Shown one piece after another: positions 3,461 to 56,193 of a stretch of DNA of 64,000 bases; the first letter of the stretch is position 1; each line of letters begins with the position of its first letter. The stretch lies in the IMG/VR virus record IMGVR_UViG_3300007351_000004, one strand, 5' to 3'. The notes beneath the pieces were generated by a model that was given only the letters and a program-made list of their open reading frames with translations, was not told the origin of the DNA and searched no databases. The stretch is from a virus. The translations under genes were made by a program, and so were the position numbers.

Positions 3461-3697
3461 TCATGTGTACCAATCCAGTTCGTGTTTAACACAAGATCTA
3501 AGTTGTTTTTGTGTGCTGATCACCGTGTACTCGTCTTTTAGTTCTATATTAGAACTAGTATGATCTTCGACAGTCAATAGACCGTGCGACAGATTCCAGA
3601 TCATATCGGTAATTTCATCCACTATAATCTCAAACTCACCGTTATGGTATGCTTCTTTTATTATTTTGTTAAGGTATTTATATTTCATATCATCCAA
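3461..3697 (-). CDS. Hypothetical protein (tandem paralog)
   Basis: MKYKYLNK...EF..IV.EI...KHELDW, similar to 3685-3939. Confidence 0.65.
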   Translation of the reverse strand: MDDMKYKYLNKIIKEAYHNGEFEIIVDEITDMIWNLSHGLLTVEDHTSSNIELKDEYTVISTQKQLRSCVKHELDWYT

Positions 3698-3939
3698 TCC
3701 AACTGATGTCTAATACTATTCTCTAGTGCATCATATGATCTAAAAATATGGTGGTAAGGTAAGAAATCAGCGTATTGAAATACTTCATCATCTAAAATTA
3801 ACTCTCCAACAGTAGGAAGCCCGTGTTCATCACTACTAATTGCCTGAGAAACAAATACTGAAATTTCACGTACCAAGTCTCCAAACTCATCGTTGTCAAT
3901 CGCGTCGTTCAAAGCCTTAGTGAGATACTTCATCTCCAA
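3685..3939 (-). CDS. Hypothetical protein (tandem paralog)
   Basis: MKYLTK...EFGDLVREI...RHQLDW. Confidence 0.65.
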   Translation of the reverse strand: MEMKYLTKALNDAIDNDEFGDLVREISVFVSQAISSDEHGLPTVGELILDDEVFQYADFLPYHHIFRSYDALENSIRHQLDWMI

Positions 3940-4350
3940 TTTCCTTATCGACTGATACTCTAAAATTAGTTGGAATAAAGTCTTTTTGATCGAAATCCGA
4001 CACGCTCTCCATCAGAAAGAAAAACCGCTTCACCAAATCCAGAATTTGCTCTTGCTGCTCCCCAATTCGATCTTCCTGCACAGCGAAATCCCGATTCGGC
4101 CCCATAAAATAAACTTTAATCGTCGCAATGTATTTCACTTCTTGATCTTCCATGCCTTATAGGTTTCCTTTATAGCGTCTTCGGTCATCCATTCAGGGTT
4201 GCTCTTCAAAAACTCCCAGACTGCATCCCAAAACTGGACGACTTTTCGCCGCGAGAACTTATGATGTCGGCGCAACTTCTCTGATTCCTGATCGATCAAC
4301 CGCGACACTTCATTGATCCGATCTACACTTACTTTCATCATACACCACCT

Positions 4351-11864: not shown

Positions 11865-11872
11865 GTCGTAGG

Positions 11873-27381: not shown

Positions 27382-27703
27382 AGGCTATAGGAGAAACTTT
27401 AACAATGGGTCGCTATTTCAATCCAACAAACGAAGTTGCCAGCAAAGGACGTGAGATTTATGGAAACTCCTACGATGAACTGGTGAATCAACTTCAAGAA
27501 GGAGAATATCTGATCGGGCTGTATGATCGGGGTATTTTCAAAAACGCGCCTCACCTTTACAGCGAACGAGAATATAACGAGTTTGAAGATCAGGCCAACG
27601 CGGGAATTATTCTGCGTGAGGGGTACTACGCAGTATCAGAAGAAATTTACCGCTTGCACGTTCGATAAAGATAGGGGGCTAACTGCCCCCTGAAAGGTAT
27701 ACA

Positions 27704-30892: not shown

Positions 30893-31309
30893 ATGAATAA
30901 AATTATTGTCTACGGCGATGGTGGGTGTGAATCGAACGGCACAAAAGATGCAAAAGCATACGGATCTTTTATTGTGCAGACACATTTAGGTGGAGCGACA
31001 ATTTATCAACACGCCAGCGGTCGATTAGATTTTGGAGATCCTGCTACTAACAATGTTGCTGAAATTAAAACGTTTATTGCAGCAATAGAGTATGTGCTAT
31101 CTAGGGACGACAGTAGTGTGATCTCTTATCCTGTACTTTATTATACTGACAGTCAGCTAGTTGTCAATTGGTTGAACGGCAACTGGAAATGCAAACAGTC
31201 TCATTTGGTTCCTTTAGTGGAAGAGGCTCGTAGATTGATGCGTCGTTTTATGTCTTTATCGGTAGAGTGGGTATCACGAGAAACTATCGAGAAGATTTTG
31301 GGGCATTAG
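30893..31309 (+). CDS. rnhA: Ribonuclease HI
   Basis: YGDGGC...TNNVAEI...YTDSQLVV...WVSRE. Confidence 0.88.
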   Translation: MNKIIVYGDGGCESNGTKDAKAYGSFIVQTHLGGATIYQHASGRLDFGDPATNNVAEIKTFIAAIEYVLSRDDSSVISYPVLYYTDSQLVVNWLNGNWKCKQSHLVPLVEEARRLMRRFMSLSVEWVSRETIEKILGH

Positions 31310-37117: not shown

Positions 37118-38060
37118 TCAGAGCATTTCTCCCAAAGTCTTGAAGCGGGAGATTAATATCCAGCAGGTTTTCGCGTATTTTGATATTGACATTGATGAAA
37201 ATAGTAAATGTCTGTGCCCTTTTCACGAAGACAAAAACCCGTCTATGTTAGTTAATTCCGAGTTTGCCTATTGTTTTGCCTGTGGTCGGGGGTGGGATGT
37301 CTTCGATTTTCTGAAAGACTACCTTCAGATAGAGTTTAACGATACGCTGTTCTGGCTCAACACCAACAAAGAATCGCTGCCCAATGTAAAAATTAAATCA
37401 AGAAGGCGGGGTGAATATCGCGGACCTGTCTCTCAGGAGTTGGTTCAGTATTGGCACTCATGCCTGACACATGAGCATCGGATGATTCTTCATGAAAAGA
37501 GACTCTTAACGGATGCTTTTATTGATCGCTGGTTATTGGGTTGGCGACCGGACTGGAACGCTTTCTCGATTCCTTTCTGGTCGGGTATTCCTCAGAAGAG
37601 CGAAATTGACATCGTTCAATTCAGGCTGACAGAGGAAAGTCCAGAGTTCATTACAAGATACACTCACGATTCCAAGTTCATTGGATTGCCGGGGCATAAC
37701 CGCCCCGCTCTGATAGGGATTCACTCTTTGAAAGATTGGGGTATCCTGGTTTTTGGGACATTTGACGCTCTCTTAGCGATACAGGACGGGTTTCCGTGTG
37801 TAAGCCCGAACGGTGCATCGGTGTTCTCGACTAAGAAAACCAAGCCGCGCATGGTTGAGATGCTGAAAGGTGTCAAGAGATTGTTTGTAGTTTACGATGC
37901 GACTGAGAGCGAAAGATCTTCCGCACAGAAAACAGTGAAAGATTTACCGTGTGATGTAATTGAGCGCGAGTTTGTTAAACACACGGATTACGGCGAATAC
38001 AGGCTGTATCATGATCCAGAAGAGTTTATGACCGAAATTTTAAAGTGGAGAATATCATGA
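37104..38060 (+). CDS. DNA primase (CHC2 zinc finger + Toprim-like)
   Basis: CLCPFHEDKNPS...YCFACG; GTFDAL; VVYDA. Confidence 0.85.
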   Translation: MGFADQSISPKVLKREINIQQVFAYFDIDIDENSKCLCPFHEDKNPSMLVNSEFAYCFACGRGWDVFDFLKDYLQIEFNDTLFWLNTNKESLPNVKIKSRRRGEYRGPVSQELVQYWHSCLTHEHRMILHEKRLLTDAFIDRWLLGWRPDWNAFSIPFWSGIPQKSEIDIVQFRLTEESPEFITRYTHDSKFIGLPGHNRPALIGIHSLKDWGILVFGTFDALLAIQDGFPCVSPNGASVFSTKKTKPRMVEMLKGVKRLFVVYDATESERSSAQKTVKDLPCDVIEREFVKHTDYGEYRLYHDPEEFMTEILKWRIS

Positions 38061-38428
38061 GAGTCTATCTGGCTGAACAAAGTGATATATGGGACTATGA
38101 TTTTGTAGAAGAATCTATGTATGGTGCTCAGGAAGAAACGTGGTGGAGGCAAGAGAGGCAAAGAAAAACAACTAGTATAAAATATGTTGCTGTGTTGAAT
38201 GAAAAAGGCGAGCCGGTAATACAGAAGAAGAAGGAAATTGAATACTCTTTTGGCTGGTTTGATTTTGGGAAAAATCACGGTGAAGACGATTATAATATGT
38301 GGAGAGACATACCCTATTCCGTGTTTTATCTGGAATTTGATACTTTGGAAGCGTTTGAGACTTTTTTCTATAAGTACGGGCTTGAACTGATTAAAGACAG
38401 TGAGCATTTAATTTTGGTGTTGGAGTAG
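38045..38428 (+). CDS. Hypothetical protein
   Basis: Open 127-aa frame. Confidence 0.6.
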   Translation: MENIMRVYLAEQSDIWDYDFVEESMYGAQEETWWRQERQRKTTSIKYVAVLNEKGEPVIQKKKEIEYSFGWFDFGKNHGEDDYNMWRDIPYSVFYLEFDTLEAFETFFYKYGLELIKDSEHLILVLE

Positions 38429-40489: not shown

Positions 40490-42232
40490 GTGTTGGAATT
40501 GAATCTTAATACGCTGCCTCTGTTCCCAACTGTCTTAGGGTTGGATATCGAGACGGACGGAAAAGATCGTTTTTCGGCTCAGATTACCGCTGTCGGCTTA
40601 TCAGATGGAGAAGATGTCTGGGTATTAACCGAGAGGTTTGAGCGGCTGGCTCCCCTACTTGAAGATCCGTCTGTTATGAAAGTTATTCATTATGCAGATT
40701 TCGATCTCACTGTCTTGTGTTTCAGGATGAAAGTCGATCACCATATCGAAGTTAAGCCTCAGAATATTTATGATACACTTTTAGTTGAGAGAGTGCTGAA
40801 TAACGGCCTGTCCATCTCTAATAAATTAGAAGATGTTCTCGCTCGTAGACTGGGAATTTTAGTTGATAAGTCCTTGCAGGAATCGTTCACGGGAGGGGGG
40901 TTAAGTGAAGATCAACTCCACTATATCGAGAACGACTGCAAACATTTAATTAAACTTCGCGACGAACAGATGAAAGAAGTCAGTCTGTGCGGTATGGAGT
41001 GGGTGGTCGATCTCGAAAACAAAGATGTTCTGGTGACTCTGGACAAGACTTTAACAGGCATCGGCATTGATATCGAACAGTTTGAGGCCATTCGAGCGCA
41101 AATTCCTGCTGTGTTGGATCAGATTCAATCTCAAATCGTAGATATCTTAGGTGAAGACTTTATTATCGAAGTTGAGCGCACCAAAAAGGGCGAGAAATAT
41201 ACCGAAGAAATTCCCGTCAACGAGATTAAGTGGAATGCCTGGCAGCAGTTAAAGCCTGCTTTACATAAAGTTGGCGTCAAAGTTAATAACACACAGCGCG
41301 GTACTCTGGAAGAGCGGCAGGATCAGCACCCCCTTATTCCTCTGGTTTTAGAGTACAAAACGTGGTTCAAGATGTTGGGCTGGCACTGGGACGAATTCAT
41401 TAATCCCATTACAGGTCGAATTCATCCTAACTGGAACCAATTAGGACCAATTACCGCACGATTTTCGTGTTCGGATCCGAACATGCAACAAATTCCGCGA
41501 CCAGACGGTGTGAGGCCAAATTTCAGATCGCTATTTCTGCCCCTCCCAGGTCATAAGTTGTTGGTAGCCGACTGGTCACAACAGGAGCCTCGAATTCTAG
41601 CGCACGTCTCTCAGGACGAGAAGATGATCGCCGCTGCTAATTCAAGTGATATTTACTCTGCCTTCGGTAAAGACGTGTGGGGCGAAGAGATTACCAAAAA
41701 AGATCCGCGCCGCCAGATTATGAAGATCGGAGTGCTCGCCTCTTTCTATGGGGTATGGCACGTTAATCTCGCTTCGCGCATGGGGTTGTCTGAAAAGGAA
41801 GCCGAGAAACTACAAAAGAAAATTTTCAATACCTATCGTAAAGCCAAACAGTGGGGCGATTATCAAATTAAGGGAGTTATGCAACACGGCTATACTCAGT
41901 CGGTCATGGGGCGCAGGATTTACTTTGAGGACACCAGCCCGCGTATGCAGTGGCGTCTCAAGAAAGAATCTCGAAACTACCCCATTCAAACAACCGGTGC
42001 GGATATGGCAAAATTAGCCGAAGTTAAAATTTATGATATAATCCAGAAGAAGAGTTACGACGCTCACTTTATCATTGGGTTACATGACGAATTAGTTCTA
42101 TCCTGTCACGAATCACAGGCTCAAGATTGTTTTGCCGATATGAAACAGGCCATGATGGAAGCGGGGTCTGAGATCTGTCCGTCCGTACAGTTTCCGGTCG
42201 AAGGGGTGGTATCTGATAAATGGGAACACTAA
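40490..42232 (+). CDS. polA: DNA polymerase family A with 3'-5' exonuclease
   Basis: DIETDG, TARFSCSDPNMQQIP, ADWSQQEPR, RQIMKIGVLASFYG, NYPIQTTGAD, LHDEL. Confidence 0.93.
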   Translation: MLELNLNTLPLFPTVLGLDIETDGKDRFSAQITAVGLSDGEDVWVLTERFERLAPLLEDPSVMKVIHYADFDLTVLCFRMKVDHHIEVKPQNIYDTLLVERVLNNGLSISNKLEDVLARRLGILVDKSLQESFTGGGLSEDQLHYIENDCKHLIKLRDEQMKEVSLCGMEWVVDLENKDVLVTLDKTLTGIGIDIEQFEAIRAQIPAVLDQIQSQIVDILGEDFIIEVERTKKGEKYTEEIPVNEIKWNAWQQLKPALHKVGVKVNNTQRGTLEERQDQHPLIPLVLEYKTWFKMLGWHWDEFINPITGRIHPNWNQLGPITARFSCSDPNMQQIPRPDGVRPNFRSLFLPLPGHKLLVADWSQQEPRILAHVSQDEKMIAAANSSDIYSAFGKDVWGEEITKKDPRRQIMKIGVLASFYGVWHVNLASRMGLSEKEAEKLQKKIFNTYRKAKQWGDYQIKGVMQHGYTQSVMGRRIYFEDTSPRMQWRLKKESRNYPIQTTGADMAKLAEVKIYDIIQKKSYDAHFIIGLHDELVLSCHESQAQDCFADMKQAMMEAGSEICPSVQFPVEGVVSDKWEH

Positions 42233-43017
42233 CTGTTCAGTCTGAAAATCTGGGGCAACTCACGGGTGAGGCAATTGTCCATAAAGCTTTGGAAGAAGTC
42301 AAAAAATATCAATCTCAAGAAGACGTAGATGAAAGATTTTCGCTGTTAAATAATGCTGCACAGATGAGCGATGCTCTCTCCGAAGGCTTTAAATTAGTGA
42401 GGGCAACAGCTTTGTGTATGATTGAGGATATCTGGGATCATCTTGGGTTTGAAGTGCGTAAAAGTTATGATTACCAGTTTCGTCTTTATGCGGAAAAGAG
42501 ATGTCCTGATCTGACCTGGACCACCATTCAAAATCACATGCGAGCGGCAAGGACATTTGTATTGGGAAATGTCAAGCCGCCCGTTGTCGAAGGTAAAATT
42601 ATTGAGTTTAACCCTCTGGAAACACCTATTTCTAAACTCGTTTTGGCGAGATCGGTAGCCGAATCTGGGCAGATCAACGACAACCCCAAAATCTGGGAGA
42701 TACTGACCGATCCCGCTTCGGACGTATCCGAACTCAGGAAAGAGTTATTCTCTGAGACAAGTAAAAAGGCAGGCATCGATCCTGAGATTCATTACGAAGT
42801 GGTTGGTCCCTATCTGATTGCCAAAAATAACGGGGATGAAGTTATTCTGGCTGAGTTTAACTGGGAGCCTTATTACGATAAGAATGAAATTGCGGTTAGA
42901 GCGGTAGATCGGCTGATGAAGTTTCTCGGTGTGACATTGGATGAAGAGATTATTTATCGTCAGATGAAAGAGAAGTTTGACGCTCGCCAGAAAGCAGAAG
43001 AAAGACGGATCTCGTGA
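42220..43017 (+). CDS. Hypothetical protein
   Basis: 265-aa ORF coupled to polA. Confidence 0.65.
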   Translation: MGTLTVQSENLGQLTGEAIVHKALEEVKKYQSQEDVDERFSLLNNAAQMSDALSEGFKLVRATALCMIEDIWDHLGFEVRKSYDYQFRLYAEKRCPDLTWTTIQNHMRAARTFVLGNVKPPVVEGKIIEFNPLETPISKLVLARSVAESGQINDNPKIWEILTDPASDVSELRKELFSETSKKAGIDPEIHYEVVGPYLIAKNNGDEVILAEFNWEPYYDKNEIAVRAVDRLMKFLGVTLDEEIIYRQMKEKFDARQKAEERRIS

Positions 43018-43586
43018 AGCCCAAAACGAACAGAAAAGGTGACATTTCTAAGTCGCATAAGATGGATCGGTGTCAGACACCGCCTTATGCTCTAAATCCG
43101 CTGCGTCCCTTTTTATCTAGATTTTCTCATGTGTGGGAGTCAGCGGCAGGTGAGGGGTATCTGGTTAGAGCGCTCGAAAAAGACTGCTTTAGGGTAACAG
43201 CGACCGATCTCCTGACAGGCGATAATTTCTTCACGATGTCAGTGCCGAAGGGGTGCGAAATCCAGATCACCAACCCGCCCTTCTCCGCGAAATACGACTG
43301 GTTGAGACGAAGTTACGAGTTGGAATTTCCGTTTGCTTTACTACTTCCTATCGAGGTATTGGGTGCTGCCGCTGGACAGAACTTAATTCGGGAATATGGT
43401 GCAGAGATTATCTTTTACGATCAGAGGGTGGATTTCAAAATGCCCGAAAAGGGGTGGAACGGGGGCGGTGCGCAGTTTCCTACTATGTGGCTGACCTGGG
43501 GGTTGAATATCGGGCAGCAGATGACGTTCGCTCGACTCAATAAACCCGGCAAAGCCGAGAGAGATAAGTTTCATGAAAATACGTGA
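43014..43586 (+). CDS. Small phage N6-adenine DNA methyltransferase
   Basis: QTPPY, WESAAGEG, ITNPPFS, FALLLP. Confidence 0.8.
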   Translation: MKPKTNRKGDISKSHKMDRCQTPPYALNPLRPFLSRFSHVWESAAGEGYLVRALEKDCFRVTATDLLTGDNFFTMSVPKGCEIQITNPPFSAKYDWLRRSYELEFPFALLLPIEVLGAAAGQNLIREYGAEIIFYDQRVDFKMPEKGWNGGGAQFPTMWLTWGLNIGQQMTFARLNKPGKAERDKFHENT

Positions 43587-43899
43587 TGTGAGCATGGTTG
43601 AAGAGTTTTATGATGATTATACTGAAGCACCTAATCACGTCAAGAAACGAGTAGACAACAAGATCCGAATCATGGGCGAAGCCATTCAGACGAACGGTTG
43701 GTGTCATTTGCCCAATTCTTTTAATGCCCATAAAGTCGATAACGTGCCTGATTTGTGGATCGGCTATATTACAGTGGGCAATCAGGGCTGGCGGGTGTTG
43801 TTCGATGTAGACGTTAAAGGCACCCTCCGTTTTTTGCATCTGCTGTCTCACGACAATATGGATTTTTTGTTAAGACAACTTCAACGCTGGGAGACTTGA
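43573..43899 (+). CDS. RelE/ParE-fold toxin-like protein
   Basis: EEFYDDY...VKKRVDNKI...HKV...LW...WRVLF...LHLLSHD pattern, 108 aa. Confidence 0.6.
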   Translation: MKIRDVSMVEEFYDDYTEAPNHVKKRVDNKIRIMGEAIQTNGWCHLPNSFNAHKVDNVPDLWIGYITVGNQGWRVLFDVDVKGTLRFLHLLSHDNMDFLLRQLQRWET

Positions 43900-43946
43900 C
43901 ACTGCGAATCTTTCCTGATATAATGATGTTAGAAAGGAAGGATGAG

Positions 43947-44804
43947 ATGCTAACCCTATACGAGCGGAATGTAGTCGAAGAAATTTTGAATACTTTGTTG
44001 GAGAACCTGTCTCCGCTGTCGCGTGAATCCTACCGCGCTTCGATTGTCAGTTTCTTGCGGTTTTCGATTGCGCGTAAGCAGGCCAACCCGTTTCAGTCGC
44101 CCGTGTCAGTTTTCACGGCGTATAAGATGGAACTCAAGAAAGAGTATGCTCCCGCAACCGTCAATAAGAAACTGTCGGCGGTGCGTGAGTTTTTCCGTTA
44201 CGCCTACATTCACGAGTTGATCACGCACGAGATGTATGAAGGTATCCGTCTCGTCTCGAATGTCCGCCAGTCGGGTGAGACGTGGCGTGAGTGGTTGGAC
44301 GAAGATGAAGCCCATGCCTTACTGGAAAAAGCCGATTTGCTGAGAGACAAGGTTGCAATTGTCTTGATGATGATCGTTGGTTTGCGACGAGAAGAGGCGG
44401 TATCAGTTAAGTGGGAACAACTCATTCAGCAAGACGGGGTGTGGTTGTTGGCAAATGTCGTTGGCAAGGGCAATAAGATCCGCCACCCCGAAATTCCAGA
44501 TCGTTATGTTCCGCTGTTTCAGTTGTGGCGCGAAGACAACTACAAGGATTACATTCTGGTGTCGATTGACCGGCACGGTAATCTGGGAGATAGGCTGAAC
44601 AAGACCTCGCTCAATAAGATTATGAAGAAATACGATGTGCGACCGCACGATCTTCGCCGCACTTCGGCTAAGTTGGCAGATGAAGGTGGTGCTCCTATTC
44701 GCGCTATTCAGAAGCAGTTAGGACATTCGTCGGTCAAGACGACCGAGATTTATATGGAGCCTATGCGTGTAGGCGAGAGCGCAGTACACTACATTAAGAT
44801 ATAA
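43947..44804 (+). CDS. Tyrosine recombinase/integrase (XerC/D-like)
   Basis: Full R-K-H-R-H-Y set: GLRREE, GKGNK, HDLRR, LGHSS, TEIY; probable start ATG 43947. Confidence 0.93.
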   Translation: MLTLYERNVVEEILNTLLENLSPLSRESYRASIVSFLRFSIARKQANPFQSPVSVFTAYKMELKKEYAPATVNKKLSAVREFFRYAYIHELITHEMYEGIRLVSNVRQSGETWREWLDEDEAHALLEKADLLRDKVAIVLMMIVGLRREEAVSVKWEQLIQQDGVWLLANVVGKGNKIRHPEIPDRYVPLFQLWREDNYKDYILVSIDRHGNLGDRLNKTSLNKIMKKYDVRPHDLRRTSAKLADEGGAPIRAIQKQLGHSSVKTTEIYMEPMRVGESAVHYIKI

Positions 44805-44838
44805 GGCGCGACAAGCGCCCTGTCCTGGGAGGGGAGAG
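44805..44838 (+). repeat. Intergenic hairpin+RBS repeat, copy 1
   Basis: GGCGCGACAAGCGCCCTGTCCTGGGAGGGGAGAG-ATG right after recombinase stop. Confidence 0.85.
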
Positions 44839-45069
44839 ATGCGCGTAAAATATCCACAAGACGATTGGCGGTGGTATGACCCCTGGAACGAAGAGTGGTT
44901 TTGCAGTCATGAGTGCGCCATGTCGTATAGCTACGTAGAAGACCATGAACTGCGCCGAGTGTACCGAGACAACTTCACGCTGGCAGACCGACGCATCATG
45001 AAGACGTGTCGCTGTGGTGTACGCTTTGAGGTATCGGAACAAGACACCCGTGAGGTTGAGTACGACTAG
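44839..45069 (+). CDS. Small Cys-containing hypothetical protein
   Basis: FCSHEC, CRCG; bounded by repeats. Confidence 0.65.
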   Translation: MRVKYPQDDWRWYDPWNEEWFCSHECAMSYSYVEDHELRRVYRDNFTLADRRIMKTCRCGVRFEVSEQDTREVEYD

Positions 45070-45070
45070 C

Positions 45071-45108
45071 AGGCGCGACAAGCGCCCTACCCTGAGAGGG
45101 AATGAACA
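45071..45108 (+). repeat. Intergenic hairpin+RBS repeat, copy 2
   Basis: AGGCGCGACAAGCGCCCTACCCTGAGAGGGAATGAACA-ATG. Confidence 0.85.
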
Positions 45109-45315
45109 ATGGACGAATATGTATATACGGCACAGCGCGCGGTAGTCTATCGCAATGCGCCTGATCTTGAGACGGTTCGGGAGTTCTTGGAAGAGTGCGC
45201 TCAAGATGGAGAAATTGTACATTTCCAAATTCTGCCCGTGCCTCATATACGCGGATACGACTACGACGTTGTCGTAGTCATCAACGAAGAAAAGCGTGTA
45301 CCCAAAGGTCTATAG
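45109..45315 (+). CDS. Small hypothetical protein
   Basis: Bounded by repeats. Confidence 0.65.
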   Translation: MDEYVYTAQRAVVYRNAPDLETVREFLEECAQDGEIVHFQILPVPHIRGYDYDVVVVINEEKRVPKGL

Positions 45316-45316
45316 C

Positions 45317-45356
45317 GGGCGCGCACAGCGCCCTACCCTGAAGGAGGGGATGAACG
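45317..45356 (+). repeat. Intergenic hairpin+RBS repeat, copy 3
   Basis: GGGCGCGCACAGCGCCCTACCCTGAAGGAGGGGATGAACG-ATG. Confidence 0.85.
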
Positions 45357-45641
45357 ATGAGTATGTACCAGTACACTAGCAAAGGCTACAAGTTCGTTGA
45401 ATACGACGCCGACGACATTCCAGAACTGTGGATTGTCGTAGAGCATGGCGAAGAGCCACCAGAAGACATTGACCCCGATATGGATTGGCTGTTCGACAAC
45501 TTCATTGAGGCGGTCGAATGCGCAAATGACGAAGCATTGGGCAAGTCTCGCGCCTTCGATGTGTGGATGATGTCACCGGGCCAGTATTGCGCCGCGACGT
45601 TCTTCCCGTCCGTATCCCAGGAGGCCCCCGACCATGACTGA
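45357..45641 (+). CDS. Small acidic hypothetical protein
   Basis: Follows repeat copy 3. Confidence 0.65.
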   Translation: MSMYQYTSKGYKFVEYDADDIPELWIVVEHGEEPPEDIDPDMDWLFDNFIEAVECANDEALGKSRAFDVWMMSPGQYCAATFFPSVSQEAPDHD

Positions 45642-45975
45642 CACCGACTGGACCAACGACGCGCCAGAGGACATCGGTAAGGCGATGGCTGATAAACACC
45701 TGCGGATTATCAAGAAGACAGCAGCGGCAAAGAGACTAAAACCACCCAAGAACTTCAGAGACACTCTTCCTCGTTGCTGCCATACGTGTAAGTGTGCCAG
45801 GGTAGATGAGGGAGAACGCTGGGCTGTCTTTTGTATCAGAGAGCCAGGGAAGCCCCTGAGTTTTGATACGCTAGAGGACCTGTGGACGGTAGTTTGTGAC
45901 TACTATACGCTTTCTCCTACGGGAGAACACCCACTATCTGGCAAATTCAAGGAGGCCCCCGATGACACTGACTGA
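45634..45975 (+). CDS. Hypothetical Cys-cluster protein
   Basis: CCHTCKC...FC...VCD; AGGAGG RBS. Confidence 0.6.
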   Translation: MTDTDWTNDAPEDIGKAMADKHLRIIKKTAAAKRLKPPKNFRDTLPRCCHTCKCARVDEGERWAVFCIREPGKPLSFDTLEDLWTVVCDYYTLSPTGEHPLSGKFKEAPDDTD

Positions 45976-47515
45976 CGACCGACCGCTGACCCCGGACGCC
46001 CTGCGCGACATCGAGGCGCGGGCGGAGGCAAACTACCGGATACTCGCGCCAGATGTACAGTCTGTGCCGGATACCACATGGTATGTGGCACAGGACAACT
46101 ACCCGACGAATCCGCTTATCCTGGCCGCACCAGACGCGGGATGGGCACGCGGGATGGTGGACGAACTCACGCGCCGGGACAATGACGCCCGCCTGCTGCT
46201 GGCGCACATCCGCGCGCAGGACGCGGAACTGGCGCGGCTGCGGGAGGAAATCGACCCCACCTGTCTCCGTAATGGGTGTATACGAACGGGGGCGAGGGAA
46301 TACCGTGACGCTGAGGAACACTATAGGGATGATGACGAGGAAGACACCCCCTAGCCCAGCGCCCGCTCGATTAGATAAAAGTAAACGGGAGAAGACAGTT
46401 AATGAGGACTTTTAAAATTGATAGGTTAACAGACGGGGAAATTGAATCTCTCCTGCAGGAATATAAAGTGAGATACGAAAAAGAGGTTGACAACATTCTC
46501 GAAACGCGCTCTCCCAACGATTATGTGTTGGATGAGATTTATCAGATCATTTGCGTGTTATCTGAGATTCAAGATACACGAGCAGCACTCAGAAAAATCG
46601 CTTATCGTTTTTATTTGACAGATCCAGTTGATACGGTTACTATTTTACGAGATACTGCTGTAGAGGCTTTAGAAGATGAATGATATTGATGATATAGCGT
46701 ATCTTGTTTATGATTTGCTAAGTTGTGATGAGAGCTTGAGTTGGACTATAGGTGATTTATATTGGGCATTAAGTGCAACAGAACCTGACAAGGATATTAC
46801 ACTGAATGAAGTTAGATATGCTGTATGGTATTTGATTGACGAAGTAAAAGCCGATTTAACATCAGATAGAAGGGTTATATTTCACAATGATAGCATTTAA
46901 GTGGGGCCAATTCACGATTAGGGTGAACATTTTACTTCTATTGTCTATTCCACTTATGTTATTTGGTCAGTATGAGATAGCAATCTGGTTAGTGTTGTGT
47001 GGTATATACGGAGTGTTGGCGCAATGAAACCTAAGCGAGGCGTGTTTTCTTTACGGGGTTGGTTGTACTGGCAATTGCGCGTGTTGCCAGATAAAGATGA
47101 TGTTAAAGATGTGTTTAAGTCACTTTTAGATTTTTTGGATGAGATGACATCTGATACAGAATCGAGTATAGGAATTAGTTCTATACTGTTTGGTATTTGT
47201 TTTATGGTTGTTTCTCTAACCCCGATAGTTGTTGGAGAAGTATTATCTATATCAGTAGATGATTACGCGGGATATATAATTTTACTCTCTCTTCTGTTAT
47301 CTTTTTTAAGTATTTCTCTCATGCACTATCTTTTGTATGTATATAAAGCAGAACTCAAGGAGAAAAATGATGAAACCCAATCGCGGTGATGTGGTCTATA
47401 TCGTAGATCGAAACGGAAAGAAGACTCACAATAAAACCCATGTAATGCACGTGTGGGAAAATTACGACGACTGCTGGCATATTCATGATGAGTTTGTCGT
47501 GCCCATGAAAGTTAG

Positions 47516-47875
47516 ATGGGACGGCGAAAGTTGGATACAGTGTATAGAAAGGCCAAGCGAGACAAAAACGAAAAGCGACTCGTGGATTTTTTAAGACGAT
47601 GCGGAGCATCAATAGCCTATCTGGACGATCCTGGTGTACCGGATCTTCTGGTGGGCTATTGTGGTTTAAATCTGTTATTAGAAGTCAAAGGGCAGAAAGG
47701 TAGACTTACCAGTGCTCAAAAGTCTTTTATACAGAATTGGGGGGGCACCGTTTATGTGGTCAGAACCATCCGAGATGTCAAATTTGCCCTTAGATCCGAG
47801 CGCCTACGGCATGACGGATGTTTACACCTGGCGGCAGTATCTCAAAAAGGAACTACTCAAGAAGCGGGGGTATAA
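47516..47875 (+). CDS. VRR-NUC / PD-(D/E)xK nuclease (Holliday junction resolvase-like)
   Basis: KRDKNE...GVPDLLVG...LLEVK...LTSAQ..F..W. Confidence 0.8.
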   Translation: MGRRKLDTVYRKAKRDKNEKRLVDFLRRCGASIAYLDDPGVPDLLVGYCGLNLLLEVKGQKGRLTSAQKSFIQNWGGTVYVVRTIRDVKFALRSERLRHDGCLHLAAVSQKGTTQEAGV

Positions 47876-51200: not shown

Positions 51201-52069
51201 AAGGACAGATACCGATTATAATAAGTCATCGTAATAGTTGGAGTTCCAGAATCGAGTGTAACCTGCAAGACGTTATCTCCGTCTTCGACAATCGGGTGGG
51301 GTTGAAGGTTAAAGTTGATGAGATTAGAACTCAGAGTAAGATAACTGAGCAGGGAATCTCCGGAGTCGTTGTAGACATCTTTGATACCGTAACTTAAATC
51401 AAAAGTCATAATTTCTGCTGCACCAGATGTATACTGCAAATCCATATAATACAGCGTATCTGTATTTTGAATAGCGAAGTTTTGAACAGCACCATCTACA
51501 ACAATTGTCGGATATTCTTCCCAGTTGCCTTCGTAAGTAATGGTATTGTTACCTACATTAAGCTCGACCTCAACAGGCGTGGGATCGTAAAAGAGAGGAT
51601 TATAAGCTGTAAATGTCAAATCTTCCTGAATAGCATAAATATCGTCTGAATCCCGATAGGTCACGCCTCCATTCAGGTAAACATCGATGGCCCGAACAAC
51701 AAGCTGTCCATCTTGAAGATAAAAGAATTTAAGCTGGCCCGGCTCTGGGTTGTTAAAAGGCGCGTGGGTGTCTGGATCGCTGGGGCGGTTGATGCGTAAG
51801 ATATCAGTTAAAGTATCCCGATTATCCCACAACTCCGAGCGCGAGAATCCGTTATGCCGAAACGAAAAGGAAATAGTGCGGGGATCTAAGGCGGCGCTGA
51901 TGACTCGCTCCCCGTGTTGGTAGGGACCAGCCACCGAACGATACGTTCGAGGCGGCAAGCCAACCCCATCGAGATTATACACCCCTTTATTGGGGGGATC
52001 GTGTAAGTTAAATTTCACCCCGTCAGGTGTGATGTATTGAACTTTCTCTCGAACAGGTTTGCGAATCAT
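51197..52069 (-). CDS. Distal tail protein (Dit-like)
   Basis: Directly after tape measure; LTFTAYNPLFY, ITYEGN..EYP.I. Confidence 0.75.
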   Translation of the reverse strand: MIRKPVREKVQYITPDGVKFNLHDPPNKGVYNLDGVGLPPRTYRSVAGPYQHGERVISAALDPRTISFSFRHNGFSRSELWDNRDTLTDILRINRPSDPDTHAPFNNPEPGQLKFFYLQDGQLVVRAIDVYLNGGVTYRDSDDIYAIQEDLTFTAYNPLFYDPTPVEVELNVGNNTITYEGNWEEYPTIVVDGAVQNFAIQNTDTLYYMDLQYTSGAAEIMTFDLSYGIKDVYNDSGDSLLSYLTLSSNLINFNLQPHPIVEDGDNVLQVTLDSGTPTITMTYYNRYLSL

Positions 52070-55000
52070 CAGCCTACCGCCTGTTGTGCCAAAAGATACT
52101 GCGAGTACATTTGCTGGTTCTGCATATAGGTTGAAGAAGGCTGAGGACCAACAAACTGTGGTGAGTAGGTATTATAATTTACATTACTTTCCGAAGATCC
52201 CGCTGCCGGGGCAGTGCCTGTTAGGAAGGAGAAAGCTGACGAAACTGCGCCGCTGATGAGGGTCAGAAGTGTAGATGCTGTATTGTAGAAGTTCATCAAC
52301 TGTGTTGTAACGGATGTAGTTGAGTTGGTGATTCCCATCGAGAAAATATCAAACTGATACAGGATCGAGTTGAGAACGGATTGCAAGTAGGTTTGATAGG
52401 ACTGCATACCGTAAATCAGACCCAACATGACATCCTGACCGATTGCCATAAAGATGCGGGAGGGCGAGTAGGCCATCCAAGCAGTTTTAAGTGTGCTGAT
52501 AGCTTTACTGGCAATTGAATTGAGAGTGGAGGTTAGGGTTGGTGTGTTGGTGTCTAATCCAGAATTGAGTCCCTCTATAATTGCCATACCCAAAGGTACA
52601 GTCGTTTGATTAATGTTATCTGACATAGACTTTTCGGTTTGAGGCGAGATAGGTGTAACCTTACCAAGTTCTTCATCCAAGATTTCTTGAAAAGTTTTAT
52701 CTAGCCCTAGTTCGTCACTTAAACCTAAAGCCTCATATACATTCCAGTCAATACCGATAATTTTTCCAAAAACTCCACCGGGGTTAGTCCATATTTTAAG
52801 ATATTCGTTAATGAACTGCTGCCCTAAATACTTTCCGCGAGCTTTAATGCGGGGAGTAAGATAAGTATCAAACCAACTATCTAAAGAATCCCATGCAGAT
52901 TGAAAAGACGGTTGTAAGAGAGGCCATAGATCATTACTAATAAGATCTCTCACACCAGTAAAAGCGAAATTGAATCCGTCTTTAATGCGATTTTTTACGT
53001 CTTCACCTGTTATATAATCAACCATCTGAGAAATTAATTCGCCTAGAGATTCAACCAAACCGCCCTCGCGCACGAGATCAGACGACAGATCAAAACCGGC
53101 TTGTTTTAGACCTTTTCTGCGCTGTGCATCTCCGTAGTCGGGTATTTCTCGTGTCACTCCCGCAGGAGTAGTCATGAAGAATTTACGTTGTTCTTTACCG
53201 AATAGAGCGTCCTCGAAAGCGTCTTTGACTACGCTTCCGATACTGGATATACCTGCGGCAAGTAAGCTCATTCCGTCTGTTTGCAACCAATCTACTGCGC
53301 TATACACAAACGATTCAAGACTGGGTTTGACAGTATCCCATAAGGTGCCTGCTGCTAGAATAATTCCATCCCAAATTGTTTTAAGGGTTGGACCTAATTC
53401 TTCAAAGACGCCCTTAAGTCCGCCTTCTTTGTAAGCGTTAACCAGACTGGTAAAAGCATCAACAACAACCGTTACAATGTTGGCAATGAGCGCGAAACCC
53501 TGCAAGCTGAACGATACAATTTGCCCCAGAATTTCACCGGCAGTTTTACCAATGTTCGATGCGGTACTCTCGAAATCTGGCTCAAGCTGGCTGATAAACT
53601 CATCCTGTGTCTTTTGGGCGCTGCCAAAAATAGCGGTGAACAGTGCCCCGAAAGAAGAGAAAGCATCTTTAACAGCGCGAATGAACGTATCAAACGCCGC
53701 TGCCATGTCGCCAAAACTTTCGGTCCACCCAATGAAAAACCCGCCCAAAAACTGAGCAATTGCTGTTGTCAGAGCAATAATGCGGTCGCTGGTTGAGCCA
53801 ACCGACTTTTCGAGTTTCAGAGAGTTAGTAACGCCGTTGATCAAGAACTTGACAAAGGCAACCGTCGCTTTGTAAATTTGAATGGCGTGAGAGGTTGCAG
53901 TACCCAAAGCATAAGAAAATTTGCGAGCGTTTTCTTCGCTGGCACCCAAAGCCTTAGCAATACCGAGAATACCCCCCTGACGACCGGATCCTAAACTGCC
54001 ACCTGACACAAACAAAAGTAAAGCTCGCTCGATGCCTTCTCGTTTAATGTCTTCGGTGAAGTTGGTAAAGGAGAGTTTGAATTCAGCCAGCAGCTTATCC
54101 CAGTTCTTCACCGCTTGCGTGATAACTTTTGGCGCAAACAATAATGTAAAACCTGCTGCAGCTATTGCAATCAGGGACGGAATAGCCTTAAGAGGTTTTA
54201 GAATGAAATTAACAATAGAAGCACCAAAAACTGGGATGCGTTTAGCGGTGCCAGTTATAATAGTTCCTACATTACCGAACACAAACTTAAAAGCATTATG
54301 AACTCCACCAAATAGAAGGTCTGTGATCCACTTTAGCGGGGTAAGTATGAAACTTGCAAATCTACCAACAATAGCGCCTACTGCCGGATTCGCCACACCA
54401 ATAAATAGATAAAGAGCTTGCTTAACGAAATATCTAAAAACGCTGACTAAGGCAGACGGAACTCTGAATAGAGTATTAAATCCCCCTATAAAAACCTTAT
54501 TTATAAGAAAAGAAAACGATTTAGTGAGTGGAGACGCTAGACTACTAAGCATACCCGTAAATAATCCAACAATTCCCTTAATATCTTTAGCAAAAGACTG
54601 AGGTTTTGGAATTAGTTTGCCAAGCCCACCCAACAATCCGCCTTTCTTGTCCTTACCCTTCCCGCCCCCAAAGAATAACCCAAAAATGCCCAACAAGGGG
54701 GTGAAGGGTAGGGTGAGCAGACCACGAAACGCCCCGCTGAGCTTGGTCAGGCCGATAGCCGCATTACCTGCCAGTTGAGTCAATGTACCAATTACCAGCA
54801 GAGCAGGACCGAAAGTGGCAATTAACAATCCAAAGCGGAGAATACTCTTTCGGACAGCCGGATCTATATCAATGAAGCGCTGGATCAGATTTCGTATACC
54901 AGTGATTATGTTCTCAATGTCGTCTCGCAAGTCTTTAAGGACTTCGACACCTAGCGCCATAAACGAGTTTTTGAGCAGTTGAAGTTGGTTTCTAATCGTC

Positions 55001-56193
55001 TTGGACTGTTTTACGAACTCTTCCTGCAGAGCGATTTGTTCCTGCCACTGCACATTCGCCAGAGCAACATTATTACGTACCAATTCAATGTTAGGGCCAA
55101 GCAGGTTTAGAACTTCACGAACGCGGATACCTGACAGTCCCAATTCTAAGAGGGTATCTTTGGTGATCCTTCCGGCGTCTTGCGCGTCCGCTAGTCGGGC
55201 TAAGAATAACTCTAATGTCCCTAAAGCATCTGTCTTAAAGCGAGTGGCAAATTCCTGAGCGCTCAACCCGGCAATCTGCGCAAACGTGTCCAGAGCATCG
55301 CCACCATCTGAAATAGCGAAGATCATCTCGTAAATGACGCGGGAAACAGCAGTACCGCCGCGTTCCGCTCTTACGCCCATCTCTGCTAGCGACGTAGAAA
55401 GCCCTAAAATATCGGGGGTTGTCAGTCCCGCTATTCTACCCGCCGCCGCCAAACGTAGAGTCAAATTGACAATTTCAGGCTCGGTTGCAGCGGCATTGTT
55501 ACCGAGAGCTACGATAGAGGCACCAAACCGCTGTGCAAATTCAGCCATCTTTTCGGATTCGACGCCCATGATGTTTGCCACACGAGCGATAGCGAAAGCG
55601 GCGGCTTCGCTAGAAAGATCGGTTGTGACCGACAGCATAGCGATTGTTTCAGTAAATTCTTCAATCTGGGACGCAGACACGCCTAACTGACCGGATACCT
55701 GACCGATTCTCGCTAACTCAGTAGCAGCGATAGGAATGTTAAGCGAGAGATCGATAAACTGGTCGCTCAGCTTTTCTCCAAAGTCAGTTAACTTGCCAAA
55801 CTCTTCGTTGGTAAATACCGCTTGCTTTTGTAGATCATTCAAACCAGTAGTTGTGCCGTACATCTCGGTGGCAATTTCGTTAAAGCCTTTGGCTACGCCG
55901 TCTACTGTCTTAGCGACTCCAACGAAAGCCTGTTCAAAATCGATACCGGCTTTGACCAATGTACCTGTTAAAGCTAAGATGGGAGCAGTCACGCCAAAGG
56001 TCAGAGTACGACCAAAGGACACCATTGCATCGCCAGCGCGAACCAGACTGCGACCGAAAGCGGCGGATCCCGCGCTGGCAGCGTCCATTGTGGCGGCGAA
56101 TCGGGTGAGGTCGTTGCGGAGAGCGCCAACCTGACGGTGCGCCTCTGCCGCGCCCAAAACCACGATCCTAATGCCGACATTTGTGTTAGCCAT
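52069..56193 (-). CDS. Tail tape measure protein (TP901-family core)
   Basis: 1374 aa helical, FEQAFVGVAKTV, AERGGTAVSR, hydrophobic middle. Confidence 0.92.
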   Translation of the reverse strand: MANTNVGIRIVVLGAAEAHRQVGALRNDLTRFAATMDAASAGSAAFGRSLVRAGDAMVSFGRTLTFGVTAPILALTGTLVKAGIDFEQAFVGVAKTVDGVAKGFNEIATEMYGTTTGLNDLQKQAVFTNEEFGKLTDFGEKLSDQFIDLSLNIPIAATELARIGQVSGQLGVSASQIEEFTETIAMLSVTTDLSSEAAAFAIARVANIMGVESEKMAEFAQRFGASIVALGNNAAATEPEIVNLTLRLAAAGRIAGLTTPDILGLSTSLAEMGVRAERGGTAVSRVIYEMIFAISDGGDALDTFAQIAGLSAQEFATRFKTDALGTLELFLARLADAQDAGRITKDTLLELGLSGIRVREVLNLLGPNIELVRNNVALANVQWQEQIALQEEFVKQSKTIRNQLQLLKNSFMALGVEVLKDLRDDIENIITGIRNLIQRFIDIDPAVRKSILRFGLLIATFGPALLVIGTLTQLAGNAAIGLTKLSGAFRGLLTLPFTPLLGIFGLFFGGGKGKDKKGGLLGGLGKLIPKPQSFAKDIKGIVGLFTGMLSSLASPLTKSFSFLINKVFIGGFNTLFRVPSALVSVFRYFVKQALYLFIGVANPAVGAIVGRFASFILTPLKWITDLLFGGVHNAFKFVFGNVGTIITGTAKRIPVFGASIVNFILKPLKAIPSLIAIAAAGFTLLFAPKVITQAVKNWDKLLAEFKLSFTNFTEDIKREGIERALLLFVSGGSLGSGRQGGILGIAKALGASEENARKFSYALGTATSHAIQIYKATVAFVKFLINGVTNSLKLEKSVGSTSDRIIALTTAIAQFLGGFFIGWTESFGDMAAAFDTFIRAVKDAFSSFGALFTAIFGSAQKTQDEFISQLEPDFESTASNIGKTAGEILGQIVSFSLQGFALIANIVTVVVDAFTSLVNAYKEGGLKGVFEELGPTLKTIWDGIILAAGTLWDTVKPSLESFVYSAVDWLQTDGMSLLAAGISSIGSVVKDAFEDALFGKEQRKFFMTTPAGVTREIPDYGDAQRRKGLKQAGFDLSSDLVREGGLVESLGELISQMVDYITGEDVKNRIKDGFNFAFTGVRDLISNDLWPLLQPSFQSAWDSLDSWFDTYLTPRIKARGKYLGQQFINEYLKIWTNPGGVFGKIIGIDWNVYEALGLSDELGLDKTFQEILDEELGKVTPISPQTEKSMSDNINQTTVPLGMAIIEGLNSGLDTNTPTLTSTLNSIASKAISTLKTAWMAYSPSRIFMAIGQDVMLGLIYGMQSYQTYLQSVLNSILYQFDIFSMGITNSTTSVTTQLMNFYNTASTLLTLISGAVSSAFSFLTGTAPAAGSSESNVNYNTYSPQFVGPQPSSTYMQNQQMYSQYLLAQQAVG

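Follow-up and report, generated by a model that had tools for sequence, protein, structure and literature searches.

A 64,000-nucleotide stretch of viral DNA from the IMG/VR record IMGVR_UViG_3300007351_000004 (hereafter the window) carries a gene for a tyrosine recombinase, called the integrase below, followed by a run of small open reading frames (ORFs), the first three of which are each opened by a copy of the same hairpin-forming repeat. These copies are a real repeat family, and the ORFs behind them are a real hypervariable cassette region that differs among the closest relatives of this phage. The repeat is most likely an element of expression punctuation that doubles as a recombination linker. 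More specifically, we regard it as probably a promoter-less intercistronic RNA module in an operon of integrase and ORFan genes, offering short homology for exchange, and as a variant of the promoter-early stem-loop (PeSL) modules of T4-type phages. A reading as an integron or a shufflon, two systems with which a preliminary description of the sequence had compared the locus, is not supported.

A hairpin repeat between stop and start codons

Three exact matches to the pattern GGCGC-N5-GCGCC-CTRYCCTG were found in the window, at 44805, 45072 and 45318 of the plus strand, where 0.06 are expected by chance and none of 100 shuffles reached the observed count. The same three are the only ones in the entire 81,155-bp record, of which the window is positions 9355-73354 (minus strand), and a covariance model made from 12 copies of the repeat in the window and its relatives detected no additional copy within the window. 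All copies are direct, none inverted, and each has the same layout: the stop codon of the upstream gene, 0-2 nucleotides (nt), a 5-6-bp stem made entirely of G+C pairs, a 3-5-nt loop, a C-rich tract, a purine-rich Shine-Dalgarno sequence (SD) and the ATG of the next ORF. The whole measures about 40-45 bp, with 19-24 nt from stem to ATG. The preliminary description had noticed this stop-to-ATG layout in three copies, the first of them directly behind the recombinase stop codon, and was correct on both points. The copies and the ORFs that they open are as follows:

44805..44838 (+), repeat R1; hairpin GGCGC-GACAA-GCGCC, C-rich tract and SD; starts at the next base after the integrase stop codon TAA (44802-44804)
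44839..45069 (+), ORF A1, 76 amino acids (aa); ORFan with, at most, a weak hint of a zinc ribbon
45072..45108 (+), repeat R2; TAG-CA before it
45109..45315 (+), ORF A2, 68 aa; ORFan
45318..45356 (+), repeat R3; TAG-C before it; 6-bp stem
45357..45641 (+), ORF A3, 94 aa; recurs, together with the repeat before it, as cassette two of the relative L019

The three ORFs (76, 68 and 94 aa), taken from the outset to be unrelated, indeed share no similarity in blastp comparisons. Hairpins of G+C pairs next to a stop codon are rare in the window, with four on the plus strand, of which three are the array repeats. The fourth (27675-27689, GGGGC-TAACT-GCCCC) lies in the early region and is followed by CTGAAAGG and, 14 nt on, by an ATG; its design is that of the array repeats and its stem sequence is different. 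A search of IMG/VR with the repeat pattern returned ten single-copy matches on unrelated contigs, which is about chance level by our own estimate for 18 specified bases, and a longer version of the pattern returned zero matches.

Invariant stems and variable loops

Twelve copies of the repeat were compared, from seven backbones that are 5-15% apart in nucleotide sequence. The five stem pairs are invariant among them, while the loops come in six variants and two lengths, one of 3 nt, and differ even within one genome. Invariant stems combined with variable loops suggest that the stem is needed as a structure and that the loop is not read. The same combination argues against recognition by a dimeric DNA-binding protein with fixed spacing, and the variable loop also argues against a recombinase overlap region, which in tyrosine recombinases must match between partner sites. 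GTT occurs in 0 of the 12 copies, hence the GTTRRRY core of integron attC sites, already reported as absent in the preliminary description, is missing throughout.

In minimum-free-energy folds as RNA, the stop-proximal hairpin (hairpin 1) is formed in 9 of 10 repeat copies, and a second hairpin, in which CCCY of the C-rich tract pairs with the G-run of the SD, in 8 of 10. Internal copies can lengthen the first stem by TAG/CTA pairing with a 2-nt bulge. On these predictions an RNA structure is plausible; no Rfam family was found in the interval 43000-47000.

Seven arrays behind seven integrase backbones

Relatives were collected by scanning JGI/ENA metagenome contigs with an integrase alignment, which gave six contigs (L017 to L022) whose integrases are 95-98% identical in aa sequence, and by scanning GTDB genomes with the repeat pattern, which gave a single match, L072 (CAZDLK010000080.1). 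L017 comes from a 73-kb contig that is collinear with the window at about 92% nt identity. L072 is a 5.5-kb phage-like contig binned in a metagenome-assembled genome of 'Candidatus Bathyarchaeia'; it is probably a mis-binned phage contig and no evidence on host or prophage state. Over the last 590 nt of the integrase gene the backbones are 85-95% identical to one another, with L017 and L022 as the sole identical pair. In all seven backbones the hairpin element lies directly 3' of the integrase stop codon, it is present in one to three copies per relative, and seven distinct arrays follow (R, hairpin repeat; B, a second type of joint, termed junction B and described below):

Window: R-A1-R-A2-R-A3-B-A4-B-A5
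L017 = L022: R-B1-R-B2-R-B3-B-B4-B5
L018: R-C1(chimera)-...
L019: R-D1-R-A3'-B-D3-...
L020: R-C1'-B-E2, then more than 4 kb of phage-like DNA of 63-68% G+C with an HNH endonuclease
L021: R-F1-F2-...
L072: R-F1'-B-(A4 N-terminus fused to an A5-type gene)-...

No two contigs have a common array except the identical L017 and L022. In all relatives the cassette segments are complete, independent ORFs in a single orientation. Because the arrays differ among relatives, in the number, identity and order of the cassettes, the comparison supports the cassette behaviour proposed in the preliminary description; there is no array that is identical in all relatives. One metagenome (Ga0265297) is the source of both L019 and L020, so that two array variants coexist there. 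The foreign phage-like genes of L020 (L020:1099-4759, more than 3.6 kb), which sit in the variable region of a backbone of about 43% G+C, include the HNH endonuclease at 3651-4013 and a PHROG-10048 protein.

Outside this group, single-protein searches of IMG/VR found no relatives, and a search of the same database with the integrase alignment found only L014 (integrase 41% identical) and two remote loci. The gene order of L014 is that of the window (PolA, two ORFs, an ORF in the methyltransferase position, integrase, small ORFs and a VRR-NUC-like gene); behind its integrase no hairpin repeat was found, only a recurring SD motif. Eight other integrase relatives, at 29-39% identity, have no comparable repeats behind the integrase. 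A protein search gave integrases at 96%, 77%, 56% and 50-52% identity, those from 77% to 50% being clusters P0002-P0005. Among cultured phages, no relative came up when the region was compared by blastn with 50,697 phage records, and the tblastn matches of PolA and of the integrase all stayed below 30% identity.

Breakpoints and mosaic copies within the repeat

In 19 of the 21 pairs of backbones, the block of homology containing the integrase stops within the first repeat, at a point from the hairpin to a few bases beyond the ATG; in the two exceptions the first cassette is common to both members. This is clearest in the closest pairs: L019 and L072 agree at 98.3% as far as the SD and bear no relation beyond it, and L018 and L021 agree at 98% as far as the ATG. 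Cassette A3 takes third place in the window and second place in L019, and the repeat before it moves with it, the shared block extending from the TAG-C before the repeat to junction B. Its two versions are 89% identical in nt and 89% in aa sequence, and their codons differ by 19 synonymous against 10 non-synonymous changes, an excess of synonymous differences that is expected of a real gene.

Exchange within the element itself is recorded by chimeric copies. The repeat L020-1 combines the loop and C-rich tract of L017-1 with the integrase end, SD and ORF of L018-1, and L017-2 combines the left half of window-3 with the right half of L017-1; L018 and L020 further differ by converted patches within otherwise identical flanks. 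Some exchanges lie inside ORFs, as seen in the chimeric C1 of L018 and in the A4::A5 fusion of L072.

A second joint extends the array

A4 and A5 are preceded by junction B (GGAGGCCCCCGA..ATGAC) and not by the hairpin. At this joint the last codons of the preceding gene contain the SD and start codon of the next one, and the otherwise unrelated ORFs A3, B3, A4, E1 and F1' consequently end in a shared tail of 6-7 residues, ..EAPDHD. Junction B is present also in L017, L019 and L072, and it bounds exchanges as the hairpin repeat does, its sequence being unrelated. The preliminary description had closed the array at 45641; the variable array instead reaches about 46388 and contains two more ORFs bounded by junction B:

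45614..45642 (+), junction B copy 1, GGAGGCCCCCGA..ATGAC; repeat family D18
45634..45975 (+), ORF A4, 113 aa; lies between two junction B copies; in L072 its N-terminal part is joined to the following gene family
45945..45973 (+), junction B copy 2; repeat family D18
45962..46354 (+), ORF A5, 130 aa, 64% G+C; hypervariable family, MT..LTPDxLRxIxARAE
46388..46683 (+), right-hand conserved flank; homology with relatives resumes at 46388, with an ORF starting at 46402

The A5 family occurs in all relatives (L017:9849-10199, L019:1321-1614, L020:793-1086, L021:805-1245 and L072:870-1406), its alleles being merely 33-68% identical, or chimeric. As to the function of the cassettes, Pfam and PHROG gave only sub-threshold hints, and the ESM Atlas only weak viral clusters labelled 'hypothetical'; for cassette B1 of L017 the homologues found were near-identical ones only.

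Integrase and cassettes look like one operon

The integrase gene and the single strong promoter of the locus were located as follows:

43896..43924 (+), sigma-70-type consensus promoter before the integrase; TTGACA, 17 nt, TATAAT, with TG; 12/12 hexamer matches
43947..44804 (+), Xer-like tyrosine recombinase, 285 aa; PF00589 (Phage_integrase) 1.5e-22, with the SAM-like N-terminal domain PF02899

The TTG at 43896, upstream of the gene, belongs to the -35 hexamer of this promoter, and the integrase starts at the ATG at 43947. The promoter is kept in L017 (92% identical; L017:7950-7978) and also in L014 (L014:7915-7945), and between the cassettes no promoter-like or terminator-like site was found, 43896-43924 being the sole strong promoter. 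Because of this conserved promoter and the lack of promoters and terminators between the cassettes, the integrase and the small ORFs look like one operon, for which 43896-43924 is likely the single promoter. A perfect consensus is an unusually strong signal for an integrase gene. The locus forms the end of the rightward replication block and stands out by composition, with 50-67% G+C across 44000-46400 against 35-45% on both flanks.

The integrase keeps the catalytic residues R..K..HxxR..H..Y (alignment A1). Its top NCBIfam models are XerA, XerC and XerD, every one far below its cut-off, and the integron-integrase model TIGR02249 reaches 46.5 bits against a cut-off of 265, aligning only residues 228-280 (the C-terminal 53) and leaving the IntI-specific insertion unmatched. 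The enzyme, which is of the Xer type, has the SAM-like domain at its N-terminus and no arm-binding domain. The gene lies upstream of the cassettes on the same strand, not divergent from them. No tRNA-like attP was found beside it, the tRNAs of the window being located only at 11871 and 33466.

A probable punctuation module that may double as a recombination linker

The reading that we prefer starts from one operon, in which a consensus promoter would drive the integrase and a run of ORFan cassettes. On the resulting mRNA, a stable G+C hairpin would form 0-2 nt past each upstream stop codon, with the possible effect of shielding the message upstream or of stalling and releasing ribosomes. In a second hairpin, the C-rich tract (CCCY) would pair with the G-run of the downstream SD, and this masking would gate translation of the next small ORF, so that the module punctuates the transcript. 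At the DNA level, the same 40-45 bp or so precedes every cassette, and the repeat may for that reason give unrelated genes a common stretch of homology. Homologous recombination at such stretches, whether it joins relatives that infect one cell together or two copies in the same genome, with junction B (GGAGGCCCCCGA..ATGAC) as a second site, could insert, delete or replace whole genes with their expression signals intact, which would give rise to a hyperplastic region. We infer that the integrase takes no part in this: it would be an ordinary phage site-specific recombinase, the first gene of the operon and merely a conserved left neighbour of the cassettes.

Several observations weigh against this reading. 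No phage single-strand annealing or RecA-type recombinase, nor any Rad52-like, RecT or Erf protein, was recognised in the window, which has only a weak VRR-NUC/resolvase-like match at 47516. Classical RecA-dependent exchange would have to work on a repeat that is short for it, at about 40 bp, and imperfect. At the RNA level, fold z-scores are modest, from -0.04 to -3.4, and no covariation was detected for either hairpin, since the sequences are too similar and the stems do not vary, the second helix varying on one side only. The two clear chimeric repeats both switch within the 6-8 nt between C-rich tract and SD, a common zone that a fixed crossover point would likewise give. Finally, the adjacency of repeat and recombinase is constant within the clade, although by shared ancestry this amounts to one observation.

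An unlikely alternative makes the element an expression signal only, copied with each new gene or re-created for it and not promoting exchange; cassettes would arrive by illegitimate recombination, and selection would keep those that landed at gene boundaries. The rearrangements inside ORFs, distant from repeats, would fit such a process, as would other indels between L017 and the window that have no such repeat, and the more than 4 kb of foreign DNA in L020, which was acquired without further hairpin copies. On the other hand, the position of 19 of 21 breakpoints within a 45-nt element, the joint movement of A3 with its repeat, and the chimeric repeats and the converted patches between L018 and L020 point to exchange within the element.

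Integron-like capture, in which the Xer-like integrase would recognise the repeat as a duplex or as a folded single strand and excise or insert circular cassettes at the copy beside its own gene, is improbable. What speaks for it is the arrangement of the locus: an intact, conserved recombinase directly upstream, the first repeat at its stop codon in all seven backbones, co-oriented promoter-less cassettes behind one upstream promoter, content that varies among relatives with breakpoints in the repeat, a bulged TAG/CTA stem extension faintly resembling the extrahelical bases of attC, and the common switch zone of the two chimeric repeats. Against it stand features of the enzyme and of its presumed site. 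The TIGR02249 match falls far short and is confined to the C-terminal residues given above. In tyrosine recombinases a core site consists of a 6-8-bp overlap flanked by two arms of some 9-13 bp each, whereas the palindrome here has arms of 5-6 bp and a spacer of 3-5 nt whose sequence and length vary within one genome, which would block classical strand exchange, and the repeat contains no GTTRRRY. Moreover, the integrase is co-transcribed with the cassettes and not divergent, the unrelated junction B also bounds swaps and some exchanges fall within ORFs, and L014 has the same synteny and integrase family without the repeat. The gene-capture or shuffling system suggested in the preliminary description thus stands as regards cassette-like turnover with breakpoints at the repeats, and is not supported as regards its link to the tyrosine recombinase, which is Xer-like and faces no attC sites.

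A more radical version, a minimal phage 'integron' of independent origin whose integrase family and site architecture would both differ from those of integrons, would have a Xer-like recombinase, co-transcribed with its cassettes, recombine short hairpin sites to capture and reorder ORFans, and we give it slightly less credence still. Its site would perhaps be the CCCC-N6-GGGG zone in which the chimeric repeats switch. Cores of the Xer/dif type span about 28 bp, with two 11-bp arms and a 6-8-bp overlap that is identical in partner sites; the CCCC-N6-GGGG inverted repeat of the element is weak and coincides with the anti-SD/SD pair.

The repeats are very improbable as arm-type or attP sites bound by the integrase for lysogenic integration rather than as cassette boundaries. 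An attP is commonly found beside int, and short repeated sites near int are typical of attP arms, so that the placement fits; against it, copy number ranges from one to three among relatives, every copy runs precisely from stop to start between ORFs and includes an SD, the 285-aa Xer-type enzyme has no arm-binding domain, and the repeats are missing from L014. An inversion system of the shufflon type, which the tyrosine recombinase beside repeats might recall, is contradicted by the direct orientation of all copies, since shufflons have inverted repeats around invertible segments of the 3' end of one gene. The segments here are whole, separate ORFs that point the same way in every relative, and we assign the shufflon reading practically no weight.

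Comparison with known systems

The closest counterpart is the PeSL cassette of T4-type phages, a repeated module that opens with the stop codon upstream, includes a stem-loop and closes with an ORFan's SD and start (PMC2839356, Arbiol et al. 2010; PMC4122927, Comeau et al. 2014). PeSLs cluster in hyperplastic regions, where recombination between them inserts, deletes or replaces genes and yields mini-circles (PMC2839356; PMC4122927). The hairpin element shares the order of stop, G+C stem-loop, SD and ORFan start, the location in a hypervariable region in which close relatives differ by insertion, deletion or replacement of ORFans at the modules, and the occurrence of chimeric modules, as exchange within modules would give. 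It differs in having no internal sigma-70-type early promoter, the defining feature of PeSLs, so that an RNA-level, translational punctuation of one polycistronic transcript would take the place of an autonomous promoter-terminator unit. It is also shorter (about 40-45 bp against about 100 bp), less numerous (1-3 copies at one locus against about 50 per genome) and located in a siphovirus-like phage, in an operon whose first gene is an integrase. We therefore file it as an element that works like a promoter-less PeSL variant and not as a member of the PeSL family.

Lambdoid linker sequences allowing homologous swaps, also mentioned in the preliminary description, proved a closer idea than the integron or the shufflon. 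In temperate phages, relaxed homologous recombination at short diverged patches is carried out by phage recombinases (De Paepe et al. 2014, PMC3945230). There, as here, non-homologous genes have short shared patches at their boundaries, and mosaic joints fall at these patches; what differs here is that the patch is an element of definite structure that occurs as tandem copies in a single genome.

At the RNA level, the polycistronic mRNAs of bacteria provide a precedent, with intercistronic stabilising hairpins, such as the repetitive extragenic palindromic (REP) hairpins of malEFG, and hairpins that mask the SD. The element resembles them in its G+C stem just past the stop codon, not followed by a U-tract, and in the subsequent anti-SD/SD pairing; it differs in its restriction to one phage locus and in that its function is putative.

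The resemblance to integrons lies in a tyrosine recombinase followed by co-oriented, promoter-less, unrelated small ORFs with hairpin-forming repeats between them and one upstream promoter, and in cassette content that differs between relatives (seven arrays in seven backbones). A true attC site is an imperfect palindrome, some 55-140 bp long, that contains R''/L''/L'/R' boxes, extrahelical bases and the GTTRRRY core, and the integron gene intI is divergent from the cassette array, with attI and the promoter Pc at the junction. By contrast, the locus of the window has perfect hairpins of 15-17 nt without R/L boxes or GTTRRRY, a repeat that precedes each ORF and bears its SD, an integrase co-transcribed with the cassettes, not divergent from them and far below the cut-off of the IntI model, and a second, unrelated joint (junction B) that is equally good as a boundary. 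With variable loops and a repeat-free L014 in addition, the integron analogy of the preliminary description is not supported, and the direct repeats removed the shufflon analogy. Genuine integron components are on record from phage genomes (PMC9892861).

Genome context and other differences from L017

The 81,155-bp record has direct terminal repeats and is siphovirus-like, with a tape measure gene at 52069-56193 and Dit-like and minor tail proteins. It encodes methyltransferases and a replication module of its own (exonuclease, primase, DnaB-type helicase and PolA, the last at 40490-42232). An RNase H-like ORF (PF00075, PF13456) lies at 30893-31309 of the window, in the early/replication region.

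Three further differences separate the window and L017. An 861-bp insertion in L017 (L017:3693-4554, against window 40500) places a 281-aa ORF precisely where the PolA gene begins and may be a homing-endonuclease-type or split-gene insertion. A 1.7-kb insertion (L017:12256-13932, against window 48188), which the window does not have, carries ORFs resembling an IS200-type Y1 transposase and TnpB (IS605 OrfB), both named from their N-terminal sequences only. Conversely, a 127-aa ORF of the window (38045-38428) is precisely missing in L017 (window 38048-38421), both joints having a similar SD/start context.

Implications

The locus adds to the PeSL idea a promoter-less version of the siphovirus type, in which regulatory punctuation would itself be the joint at which accessory genes are swapped. 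With seven arrays and two types of joint, it is also a compact natural test set. For annotation it calls for caution, as a tyrosine recombinase followed by hairpin-bounded cassettes is insufficient for calling an integron. Should the integrase act on the repeats after all, the locus would represent a second, independent invention of gene-cassette capture, which the evidence makes unlikely.

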